Source: a virus. From it: 64,000 bases of DNA. Of this stretch, positions 27,143 to 60,879 are shown piece by piece (the first letter of the stretch is position 1; each line of letters begins with the position of its first letter). The stretch spans positions 1-64,000 of the IMG/VR virus record IMGVR_UViG_3300023174_000002; one strand, 5' to 3'. Made by a program: the position numbers and the translations under genes. Under the pieces are notes generated by a model that saw only the letters and a list, made by a program, of their open reading frames with translations, was not told the DNA's origin and did not search any database.

Positions 27143-28098
27143 TCAATTTAAATACTTTTCGTATTTTGTACTTCGTGTATTTAATACATCCTCCACATGA
27201 TGTCTGTTAATATCACAGGCACTACGATTTCCATATAGTGCAACTTTTGATTTTAAACAAAGTTTTTCTACGTTATCAAACCAACGGTTTGGATCACACC
27301 AGCTAGTTAATTTACAAGCTCTACGTTCATGATCCACACCACCCGCACCGCCATTATAGGCAGCATCAGCAAAAGCATATGCTTCACGTTTATCTACCAC
27401 ATGTTTATTAAAGTATTGGTAATTATCGCGCATCATTAGTGCTAGTGCACGAATCTGTAAGTCTGGCCTGTCATAAACTACCTGCCAGTTTAATTCACTT
27501 AATTCCCTAGGATATTTATACTTTAAGTCTGAAAGAGCATCAAACCTAATTGAGCCATCTGCTTTAAAAGCCCTGGTAATTTGTCCAAGTCCTGCTCCTT
27601 CTTCTCTAGCACTTTTTAGTCTACTACGACTATTCCAGCATTTGCTGTGAGTTAGTGATATACAGGACTCGTGCTCAATTAAGCTACCAAGGTATGCGGC
27701 TTTGGGTGTTGAGCCCAGATCTTATTTTTTTCTTGTTGTACTGTGCTTAGGTGCTCATATGCCTGCTTGGGAATATAAGTTTCTGCTGATTGTGCGTACA
27801 CCTGCGAGCCGAATAGTGAGAGCAAGCCGTAGATAATTAGGCAAAGTCCTAAAAAAGTTAAGCCTGCGCCAGTGGCGGTTTCGCGTGCTTTTTTCATTAA
27901 GGCTTCCATATCTGCATAGTCAAATAGGGCACGGCGTGCAAGGTGTGCAAACCATACAGCTACAATAGGAGTGGCTAGTTTGGCTAAGAATGGAATTGTC
28001 ATATTACCACCATTGGGGTCGCTGATAAAAAGGTACAGCATAACAATAATGGTGCCGCCAATCATAAAGATGTTGCGGAAACGAAAATGTTCTTTCAT
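27143..28098 (-). CDS. Three-helix holin-like protein (139 aa) with a -1 frame extension encoding a lytic transglycosylase (318-aa fusion)
   Basis: Frame 0 ends HPKPHTLVA*; the -1 frame from CCCAAAG (27706-27700) reads PKAAYLGSLIEHESC...GAGLGQIT...AAYNGG and is open to 27143. Confidence 0.85.
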
Positions 28099-28385
28099 GG
28101 TTTATCCAGGTTAGATAGTTTGCGTATAGTAGCAATACTATCTAGTTGTTTAAGGGCGCATTGACCGTATAGGTTAATGATGGTTAAATAGTGATCTGCA
28201 ACTTGTTCGTATGTCGCACCTACTAGTGGTGGCAGTGGCTCGCAAGCTTGCAGCAGTTTAGGGTCTACTACTATCCTATTGACAGTGGTTGCCGGAGGTG
28301 GAATTTCCGGAATTTTTTTCTTGAAAATTCCACATCCGTTTAGCAATAAGAGTAATAAACTAAGGCTTATTACTAGTTTTTTCAT
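28095..28385 (-). CDS. o-spanin (Rz1-like lipoprotein)
   Basis: Signal peptide with lipobox LNGC, Pro-rich linker, conserved Cys residues. Confidence 0.8.
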   Translation of the reverse strand: MKKLVISLSLLLLLLNGCGIFKKKIPEIPPPATTVNRIVVDPKLLQACEPLPPLVGATYEQVADHYLTIINLYGQCALKQLDSIATIRKLSNLDKP

Positions 28386-28744
28386 TTTGAATTGGCTTTA
28401 GAAATTGCTTCGTTAATGCTATCTAAAAAAATTACAGTTGGGATACACTTACCGTTTTCAATTATAGTAATCGGCTGCTGATTAAGCTTAGATTTAATTT
28501 CCTTGATAGTTTTACCTAGTTGTTGCTTTTTGCGTTCACCTTGTTCGGCAGTTTCTTGTAATGCTATTTCTAAGTCTTGAATTTTTTGTTTTACTTCCAA
28601 CTCATATTTTTGTTTTTCTTCCAAACACTCAAGCCGTGCTTGTTGTTTACCGCGTTCTAGTACAACATTATAGGTATGATAGCCTAATAAGAATAGCACA
28701 GCAATAATTACAATACCAACAATTACTTTTACATCATTAATCAT
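28382..28744 (-). CDS. i-spanin (Rz-like)
   Basis: N-terminal TM helix, coiled coil, C-terminal Cys; 4-nt overlap with the o-spanin gene. Confidence 0.8.
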   Translation of the reverse strand: MINDVKVIVGIVIIAVLFLLGYHTYNVVLERGKQQARLECLEEKQKYELEVKQKIQDLEIALQETAEQGERKKQQLGKTIKEIKSKLNQQPITIIENGKCIPTVIFLDSINEAISKANSK

Positions 28745-60086: not shown

Positions 60087-60124
60087 AAAAAAGCTCGTCC
60101 AGTTTGTTAACTGGACGAGCTTTT
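60087..60124 (-). terminator. Rho-independent terminator
   Basis: AAAAGCTCGTCCAGTT/AACTGGACGAGCTTTT; spans the chaperone stop codon. Confidence 0.85.
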
Positions 60125-60879
60125 CTTTTTGCTGTTTATATCTTCTTGACGTATATTATCAATTATCTTAATTAGTTGAAATACAATATTTCTATCGCTA
60201 GGATCAATGTCGCAGAAATTAAAAATTTCAGTAATGCCTGTTAGGGATTTTCCTAAATATACGCCATTCATGCCGTCCCAATCGTCTCGCATAAATTTGT
60301 AGACGTTAAGTGCTTGTTGTACATCTAGTGGAAAGTCATCAAATTCTACAGGTATTTCAGATTCTACAGGTTCGCTACCTAGCTGTTCACACATTTCAAA
60401 ATATGCTTCCTTAGTCATAGCCAAAGAACTATTTTGTATGTAGTTTTTTAGCAACTCAGTTACTTCGTAGAGCTGCCTGTAGAAAAGTTTCCCAGATCGC
60501 TTACCTGTTCGCTAATAAATGCGTCAAAGTTACTGGAATTTTTCATTAAGTACAATGCATTTTCTGCAGTGAACTCTAGGAAATCGTCTGGATCTTGACC
60601 GGTTAAATCAACTGGAGCCAACTGCTCCAAATAACTTAGTTTAAGGCCTTTCCAACCTTTAATTGCTTGTTCGCAGTATAACTGCAAAAATACATCTTCG
60701 TTAAAATCTTCTTGTGGTTGACGATTTTTAAATGAAGTTTTAGTAGACTTCTTACGAATGTTTAGCAACAGTTCACGAGATAAGAAACTCAACTGCAGCA
60801 CAAACCCAGGCATGCCTGGATATTCGGTCTCTACTGATTTTGATGGTACTAGTAGATTTTTAAGAGAAAGTGTAGACAT
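60107..60879 (-). CDS. Tail assembly chaperones G (60460-60879) and G-T (-1 frameshift product)
   Basis: Between tail tube and tape measure genes; slippery G-GGA-AAC at 60493-60487; -1 frame continues into ORF 60107..60454. Confidence 0.9.

Follow-up and report, generated by a model that had tools for sequence, protein, structure and literature searches.

In the lysis genes of the virus recovered as IMG/VR record IMGVR_UViG_3300023174_000002, a holin-family membrane module and a lytic transglycosylase are probably linked by a programmed -1 ribosomal frameshift. The window analyzed here comprised 64,000 nucleotides (nt), the first 64 kb of this 99,208-bp record, which has direct terminal repeats and was rated complete. 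Two products are predicted from a single gene: a 139-amino-acid (aa) membrane protein and a 318-aa endolysin that would be either membrane-anchored or released by signal peptidase. This reading was given a probability of roughly 0.85. A first-pass annotation, made from the letters of the window alone, had already interpreted the locus as a recoding site, and the comparison with related sequences supports that interpretation and indicates that the site is conserved. As far as can be judged from the sequence, the only recognizable endolysin of this phage is obtainable solely via the -1 slip, and the same applies to all but one of the related lineages with readable DNA.

Lysis cassette and candidate slip site

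The lysis cassette is located on the minus strand after the gene of a 2262-aa tail fibre, and consists of an i-spanin, an o-spanin, and a 139-aa open reading frame (ORF) whose start overlaps the o-spanin stop (ATGA). The features of the cassette are listed below; the clade comprises the window and its close relatives, and dN/dS is the ratio of non-synonymous to synonymous substitution rates.

28382..28744, minus strand: i-spanin (Rz-like), 120 aa; phrog_8821, E 1.7e-5
28095..28385, minus strand: o-spanin (Rz1/LysC-like lipoprotein), 96 aa; PF23793, E 4e-7
27679..28098, minus strand: frame-0 ORF, 139 aa, predicted short product; a 139-aa ORF in 20/20 clade members
27796..28098, minus strand: putative holin-family membrane module, residues 1–101; hhalign, hydropathy, dN/dS 0.057
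27700..27795, minus strand: N-terminal segment and first helix of the enzyme, residues 102–133, in frame 0 (QSAETYIPKQAYEHL...IWAQHPK); alignments, dN/dS 0.10
27722..27724, minus strand: TAA closing the -1 frame six codons upstream of CCC; sequence
27700..27706, minus strand: slippery heptamer C CCA AAG, proposed -1 shift site; phase and conservation
27679..27681, minus strand: frame-0 stop TAA, seven codons past CCA AAG; sequence
27143..27700, minus strand: -1 frame, 185 codons and TGA (27145..27143), rest of the lytic transglycosylase; phrog_669, dN/dS 0.115

The ORF following the spanins (28098..27679) had been described as a three-helix protein, and hydrophobic segments could be located at residues 10–26, 35–51, and 80–96. 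Its 3' end reads ...CAC CCA AAG CCG CAT ACC TTG GTA GCT TAA. Within this end, the heptamer at 27706..27700 has the X-XXY-YYZ phase, CCA and AAG being frame-0 codons, as the first-pass annotation had stated. The same annotation had noted a TAA in the -1 frame six codons 5' of CCC, no ATG until 27436, and a fusion of 318 aa. The TAA was found at 27724..27722, neither ATG, GTG, nor TTG occurs in the -1 frame before 27436, well past the catalytic motif, and the conceptual join of 133 frame-0 residues to 185 codons of the -1 frame amounts to 318 aa. The -1 frame encodes ...AAYLGSLIEHES..GLGQ..AAYNGG..., with the catalytic Glu within IEHES. The bare heptamer CCCAAAG is not rare (three copies in the window against 5.6 expected); thus, its significance rests on phase and conservation.

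According to the proposed mechanism, ribosomes would start at ATG 28098 and produce three membrane helices followed by the first lytic transglycosylase helix. Most of them would stay in frame 0 and end at TAA 27681, yielding the 139-aa membrane protein, presumably the major product, whose last 38 residues would form a periplasmic tail. A fraction would slip back by one base on C CCA AAG, the tRNA-Pro moving from CCA to CCC and the tRNA-Lys from AAG to AAA, in what we infer to be a ribosomal event. The slipped ribosomes would translate 185 further codons to give the 318-aa protein, in which the complete enzyme is carried on helix 3 at the periplasmic side, where it could remain tethered or be freed by signal peptidase I after helix 3. 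The predicted C-terminal tryptic peptide of the frame-0 product is IWAQHPKPHTLVA (the K-P bond is uncut), and the tryptic peptides predicted for the shifted product are IWAQHPK and AAYLGSLIEHESCISLTHSK.

Conservation of the frame break and the heptamer

A total of 19 close IMG/VR relatives, originating from many samples, could be identified, and all of them had a 139-aa frame-0 ORF, a 318-aa conceptual fusion, and an identical CACCCAAAGC, while their enzymes shared 81–96% protein identity with that of the window. A complete gene was present in 18 relatives, and 17 of these together with the window give the 18 distinct gene sequences of the clade; the relatives are 78–91% identical to the window at the nucleotide level. 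CACCCAAAGC was unchanged throughout these 18 sequences, where approximately 85% of third positions vary.

The first-pass annotation had proposed to look in related phages for retention of both the break and the heptamer, and had regarded uninterrupted fusions in all close relatives as evidence against a frameshift. Both features were kept in the 19 close relatives and in seven more lineages, and the close relatives had no in-frame fusion. Among the further lineages, the break was accompanied by C CCA AAG in four (L051, L052/53, L077/78, and L081) and by C CCA AAA in three (L076, L079/80/82, and L085). Their -1 frames were 184–187 codons long and their G+C content ranged from 35 to 47%. The membrane module diverged to about 50% identity among the broken lineages, with the -1 frame still intact.

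A third form of the heptamer can be predicted from overlapping protein calls. The variants P0138, P0139, and P0068 (...HPNPFTSQG[RK], then stop) and P0140 (MGRPPKPFYLAGQIEKES...) represent two frames of one stretch, and decoding both frames simultaneously gives CAC CCA AAC CCT TTT ACC, i.e., a C CCA AAC heptamer. Across the sequences compared, the last base of the heptamer (G, A, or C) and its flanks thus vary, while the slippery pattern and the break persist.

The frameshifted arrangement appears to be widespread. Proteins of the approximately 139-aa form were distributed over 177 clusters at 90% identity, whereas the same method found only four clusters of uninterrupted length. Among the best 120 of the 177 clusters, the C-terminus consisted of HPK and 0–7 variable residues in 114/120 and of HPN and a short tail in 5/120. 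The break could be confirmed in DNA for about 30 contigs only, and the remaining prevalence is derived from protein clusters; the DNA of P0007 (an uninterrupted fusion described below) and of the HPN, P0274, and P0151 types had no match in IMG/VR. Six representatives at the 50% level (P0151, P0167, P0174, P0191, P0272, and P0274) end close to this position, a few residues away at most, with other local sequences, and examples of such divergent C-termini are ...WPTTPFLGSSQA and ...WSTHPDPKCLLG, each followed by the stop. These six may represent further recoding sites, e.g., C CCT TTY, or C CCA AAR shifted by two codons.

Selection on the two frames

Counting of variable columns by codon phase in the 18 distinct clade sequences gave [44,17,111] upstream of the heptamer and [44,139,69] past it; the frame whose third positions vary most therefore changes from 0 to -1 precisely at this site. 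The holin module had a Nei-Gojobori dN/dS of 0.057, compared with 0.10 in the enzyme segment read in frame 0 and 0.115 in the catalytic part read in the -1 frame. Wrong-frame controls gave pN/pS values of 1.2 to 9, the value for the catalytic part read in frame 0 being 1.2. These sequence comparisons show that both frames are under purifying selection, frame 0 ahead of the heptamer and frame -1 past it.

The holin-family membrane module

The three hydrophobic segments of the 139-aa ORF product had mean Kyte-Doolittle values of 2.36, 1.71, and 2.36, and lysine and arginine residues numbered three at the N-terminus, zero in loop 1, and five in loop 2. This charge distribution predicts an N-in/C-out topology, which would place the enzyme in the periplasm. 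The module ends in the signal-peptidase-like SQVYA/Q (the slash marks the putative cleavage point), and a small-x-small motif could be seen right after helix 3 in all fused lineages: VYA/Q in the window, and VNA/Q, AQA/A, and AGA/S. Judging from these motifs, release of the enzyme by signal peptidase I after helix 3 is a real possibility.

A profile of the clade module was aligned to the stand-alone holins encoded upstream of the unfused endolysins of IMG/VR relatives (family phrog_8226, YuA gp61 type) with an hhalign probability of 97.8% and E 1.2e-12 over 83 columns. The module of the uninterrupted fusion L048 matched phrog_8226 with E 1.1e-4, and the pairwise BLASTP match of the module to YuA gp61 was weak (E 0.001). 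As in phrog_8226, three transmembrane helices occur within about 100–115 residues and the gene is located beside the endolysin. BLASTn comparison of the cassette against cultured phages gave no match, and the sole cultured-phage match to the membrane module was a stand-alone gene in the 'Bacillus' phage AgentSmith.

Identity of the enzyme and position of the break

The -1 frame was 43–54% identical (tblastn) to annotated endolysins of Pseudomonas phage YuA (gp62), Morganella phage Mecenats66, Bordetella phages, and others, and it matched the endolysin family phrog_669 with E 2.3e-14. The catalytic Glu-Ser is found in IEHES of the -1 frame and as E.E[ST] in all aligned homologues. At E <= 0.01, no Pfam family was obtained for the membrane piece or the enzyme piece; the SLT model PF01464 did not match the enzyme at this threshold, and hence the enzyme is not filed there.

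The fold was assessed using an AlphaFold2 model of the uninterrupted homologue P0007, not of the window product, with a mean predicted local distance difference test score (pLDDT) of 86 and a predicted template modelling score (pTM) of 0.72. The model revealed long helices at residues 2–26, 34–61, and 75–101, followed by a globular domain, predicted with confidence, that starts near residue 103. The model range 103–319 could be superposed on MltF with Z 18.3 and a root mean square deviation of 3.4 Å over 174 residues, MltE 28–207 was aligned to model residues 107–317 with Z 15, and Slt70 gave Z 16.8. Foldseek analysis of the model produced weak E-values (2e-3), yet all top matches were lytic transglycosylases; a sequence-profile search of the PDB gave no match. 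The modelled domain conforms to the family-1 lytic transglycosylase fold (glycoside hydrolase family 23, GH23; MltF/MltE/Slt70 type).

The window encodes the counterpart of helix 111–127 of the P0007 model (pLDDT 96) before the break, and its residues 102–133, read in frame 0, can be aligned both to uninterrupted fusions and to the N-terminal part of mature unfused endolysins. Since the first enzyme helix is encoded in frame 0, the shift would fall within the enzyme domain instead of at its boundary, and an enzyme begun in the -1 frame would be without its first helix. The first-pass annotation had assigned a complete transglycosylase domain to the -1 frame. The EHES, GLGQ, and AAYNGG motifs are present there as described; the domain is nevertheless not complete in that frame, as its first helix precedes the break.

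The first-pass annotation saw no other endolysin in the window. Searches of the 99-kb genome with Phage_lysozyme, SLT, Amidase_2, Glyco_hydro_19, and Peptidase_M15_4, five Pfam families that are common among endolysins, gave no match; the negative result for Glyco_hydro_19 is weak because its control matched nowhere.

Several observations concern the 'Bacillus' phage AgentSmith (L001, MW749006.1 126145–128226), whose enzyme is the nearest homologue (54%) from a cultured phage. A full copy with a signal peptide (gene 121) is accompanied by a 111-aa N-terminal fragment (gene 119), with the endonuclease gene 120 between them, an arrangement that looks like a homing-endonuclease insertion or a duplication. 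Its stand-alone holin-family gene (gene 151; L055, 155340–155657) is annotated as a transglycosylase. The lysis genes of AgentSmith are of the Gram-negative style, so its host label may deserve a check.

Uninterrupted fusions and the direction of evolution

Homologues of the two pieces occur in three states: a separate holin and signal-peptide endolysin, an uninterrupted fusion of 300–330 aa, and a fusion with the frame break. The unfused endolysins consist of a signal peptide, a 'TYIP.QA..YLP.L......WP' segment, and E.ES, and are preceded by a three-helix 'holin' of 107–111 aa. Residues 1–101 of the window's ORF product correspond to the entire 'holin' of these phages. Compared with the unfused endolysins, that of the window has lost its own signal peptide, follows directly after holin helix 3, and contains a -1 break within the fold.

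Among the uninterrupted fusions, P0007 (319 aa) was 65% identical to the 139-aa ORF product; it reads through the junction in one frame, as shown by HPKASYLAGQIEKES and ...FWADHPKASYLAGQIEKES.... More uninterrupted fusions were P0008-10 (302 aa), L048 (308 aa), and L083 (317 aa, G+C content 67%), and about 11 others could be found, together with 92 short stand-alone modules, among the top 150 profile matches (1.84 billion representatives, 50% level). When aligned with the uninterrupted fusions (alignment A2), the two pieces of the window meet at HPK/A. In L048 (1915–4001), two small membrane-protein ORFs (86 and 133 aa) precede the fusion gene and an i-spanin with an embedded o-spanin follows it; one of the small ORFs could encode a separate holin.

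A maximum likelihood tree grouped the uninterrupted P0007/L050 with the broken L051 and L052/53 (support 90/86), with an insecure root. L048 was placed on a very long branch, so that the tree leaves the order of events unsettled. Both uninterrupted forms (319/328 aa; several contigs and several sources) and broken forms (139/140 aa) were present in the 90% cluster of P0007. The junction reads HPK-AS-YLAGQ in the uninterrupted form and HPK-AS-TLQD followed by a stop in the broken cluster-mate P0134. The 'AS' of the uninterrupted form is thus the frame-0 tail of the broken form, and L050 has CCCAAAAGCCTCTTAT; from these two features, the frame was most likely restored in the P0007/L050 lineage by an insertion two codons past the heptamer. 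This suggests that in-frame forms arise occasionally from broken ones, on the basis of one examined case and a tree with an insecure root. The rarity of in-frame forms argues that the break is maintained by selection.

Strength of the frameshift signal

The first-pass annotation had described A-AAG heptamers as strong slip sites. V_VV.A_AA.R is indeed the most shift-prone heptamer class in E. coli (PMC4066793, PMC5009743), and C_CC.A_AA.G is among the three most efficient -1 heptamers, giving 54% shifting with the IS3 pseudoknot (PMC4066793). A further frameshift proposed for the same phage, in the tail assembly chaperone pair, also proved to be real:

60110..60879, minus strand: tail assembly chaperone pair; 139-aa ORF 60879..60460, phrog_313

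The site of this pair is CTG GGA AAC, with the heptamer G GGA AAC at 60493..60487, and the 126-codon -1 extension of the ORF matches the tail assembly chaperone family phrog_3914 (E 8e-15). By homology with the canonical G/GT system, this suggests that the ribosomes of the host slip on such heptamers.

Several points weigh against the frameshift as proposed. A bare heptamer without a stimulator gave only about 0.3% shifting in E. coli in one reporter context (PMC4066793), and enzyme yield could thus be very low or could rely on an unrecognized stimulator. Analysis of the downstream region for a conserved hairpin was negative (RNAalifold -3.8 kcal/mol with zero compensatory pairs; window minimum free energy z-score -0.85), a result that does not extend to pseudoknots, which were unsearched; nor was a consistent Shine-Dalgarno-like element found upstream of the heptamer. 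For the membrane piece, direct Pfam and PHROG hidden Markov model scans of the window's module gave no match, and "holin" is a putative family name derived from annotation, gene position, and topology. A search for experimental tests of any phrog_8226-type member found none.

The sequence TACCTTG (27688–27694, minus strand), 5 nt 3' of the heptamer, was invariant in the 18 distinct clade sequences, even at positions that are synonymous in the -1 frame. It is located outside any conserved hairpin, is absent in L051, and is replaced by TACCTCC in L052. It could reflect a dual-coding constraint or an unrecognized frameshift stimulator.

Alternative explanations

The only serious rival to a ribosomal frameshift is independent initiation, in which a canonical holin gene would overlap an ordinary gene for a leaderless cytoplasmic endolysin that has its own -1-frame start and reaches the wall via holin lesions. 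Translation would start at an NTG located five codons 5' of AAA, or would reinitiate near the frame-0 stop. Canonical holin-endolysin gene pairs do often overlap, TTG, GTG, or ATG is present at this position in 13/20 clade members, which also counts against the frameshift, and the -1-frame ORF of P0140 (192 aa) was called from ATG by one gene caller. However, the codon is CTG in the remaining 7/20, including the window, and these seven have no ATG, GTG, or TTG in the -1 frame ahead of the catalytic Glu. Moreover, the first base of the NTG is the wobble base of the codon preceding a conserved frame-0 Trp. In L051 and L052, the -1 frame is shut by a stop three codons 5' of the junction, and no canonical start occurs before the catalytic Glu. 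A product started independently would lack the fold's first helix, a stretch that purifying selection preserves in frame 0, and retention of the C CCA AAR/C pattern would be left unexplained while the last base and the flanks change. Taken together, independent initiation is improbable. Two more specific starts were considered and rejected: reinitiation at an ATT or ATA near the frame-0 stop, where the codon is not conserved and two helices would be lost, and an internal start at Met64 or Met68 giving a signal-peptide endolysin, where Met68 is Leu in most relatives, no Shine-Dalgarno sequence is visible, and a frameshift would still be required.

Slippage of RNA polymerase on the A run, which would produce the fusion from an edited mRNA, is even less probable than an independent start, as the run at the site (A3 or A4) is far below the usual requirement of about seven or more. 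Transcriptional slippage is known to create fusions in some bacterial and phage genes (PMC5009743). Nevertheless, the C CCA AAC variant shortens the run further, and the conserved feature is the phased heptamer including its CCC part. The first-pass annotation had itself raised the loss of one A by sequencing error or mutation, which would make the downstream frame a decaying remnant. The window is a metagenome assembly, and the broken and uninterrupted forms differ by one base (L050 against the window). Against this, the same break was present in 19 independent IMG/VR contigs and several metagenome contigs, and overall in dozens of assemblies obtained independently from various samples and sources, while the downstream frame is under the strong purifying selection described above and remains intact over 184–187 codons in diverged lineages. 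An error or pseudogene is thus effectively refuted by the comparative evidence, and a programmed -1 ribosomal frameshift is the preferred reading.

Relation to known systems

The textbook cases of programmed frameshifting in tailed phages are tail chaperones and some capsid proteins; lysis genes are not among them. A close mechanistic counterpart is the G/GT pair of lambda-like tail chaperones (G GGA AAG), which similarly uses an X XXA AAN heptamer to give short and long products with a common N-terminus. In lambda G/GT, the long form amounts to about 4%, and no strong RNA stimulator is needed. The present site differs from G/GT in joining a lysis membrane module to a muralytic enzyme, in that the shift falls within the enzyme fold, and in that the long product would be the only source of the enzyme. 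The genes dnaX (tau/gamma), the IS3/IS911 transposases, and E. coli copA/CopA(Z) share the V_VV.A_AA.R slippery class; they have defined stimulators (Shine-Dalgarno-like, hairpin, or pseudoknot), whereas none could be detected here, and in dnaX and copA the shifted product is shorter, whereas here it is longer. The heptamer of copA is likewise CCCAAAG. Frameshifting in copA could be confirmed.

Among lysis genes, YuA (gp61 holin, gp62 endolysin) and Mecenats66 (ORF89/ORF90) have a homologous membrane module, a homologous lytic transglycosylase (43–48% identity), and the same gene order beside the spanins. In these phages, the two are separate genes and the endolysin has its own signal peptide of 20–23 residues; the window has no such peptide and has the frame break in addition. 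The uninterrupted fusions of the same family (P0007, P0008-10, L048, and L083) carry the membrane module and then the enzyme in one polypeptide, in a single frame, at a 1:1 ratio, and with no recoding. Lambda S105/S107 is a lysis gene that gives two membrane products at a set ratio via dual starts; the products predicted here differ at the C-terminus by recoding instead of at the N-terminus by alternative starts. Signal-anchor-release (SAR) endolysins are Sec-exported and held in the membrane before lysis, and the long product may be SAR-like in both respects. Nevertheless, it has a strongly hydrophobic three-helix module and not the single weakly hydrophobic helix that defines a SAR endolysin.

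The first-pass annotation knew of no description of such a lysis-control design, and a full-text literature search likewise found no description of a frameshift joining a holin to an endolysin. A similar search for natural holin-endolysin fusions returned only the TpeE-family case of Clostridium sporogenes (PMC9527704), which has an unrelated one-helix holin, a Gram-positive host, a single frame, and no recoding. A genome announcement mentions, without detail, GeneMark-predicted frameshifts 'near' holins and endolysins in Streptomyces phages (PMC9671017).

Implications for lysis control and annotation

The arrangement is a new use of a known mechanism, -1 frameshifting, and a new layout of the lysis cassette. 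Its benefit is likely to be that the numbers of membrane modules and enzymes are uncoupled, which an uninterrupted fusion would lock at 1:1, and we infer that the shift fixes the ratio between them. A more tentative proposal, which we consider possible but doubtful, is a tunable lysis device: helix 3 would act as a cleavable internal export signal, the polyprotein would dose a soluble periplasmic transglycosylase, and the abundant short product, a holin bearing the orphaned first enzyme helix, would set the timing, possibly in an antiholin-like manner via the enzyme or the long form. If this were true, the toggling of frame between P0007/L050 and their cluster-mates and the AAG/AAA/AAC swaps would serve as an evolutionary knob for the enzyme-to-holin ratio and the lysis time.

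More generally, the proposed frameshift adds a translational layer to lysis control beside dual starts, antiholins, and SAR domains. Separate genes, uninterrupted fusions, and frameshifted fusions together provide a natural series for the study of holin/endolysin stoichiometry and export coupling. The locus also affects annotation, as gene callers give a 139-aa 'hypothetical protein' and the endolysin is missed or truncated, so that such phages look endolysin-less; it is thus a well-replicated test case for frameshift-prediction tools.

Adjacent to the cassette, the start of the downstream PhoH-like gene is more likely ATG 27122, which is preceded by AGGGA, than the listed TTG 27146 (minus strand). 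With a start at ATG 27122, the TGA of the enzyme would not overlap the PhoH-like gene.

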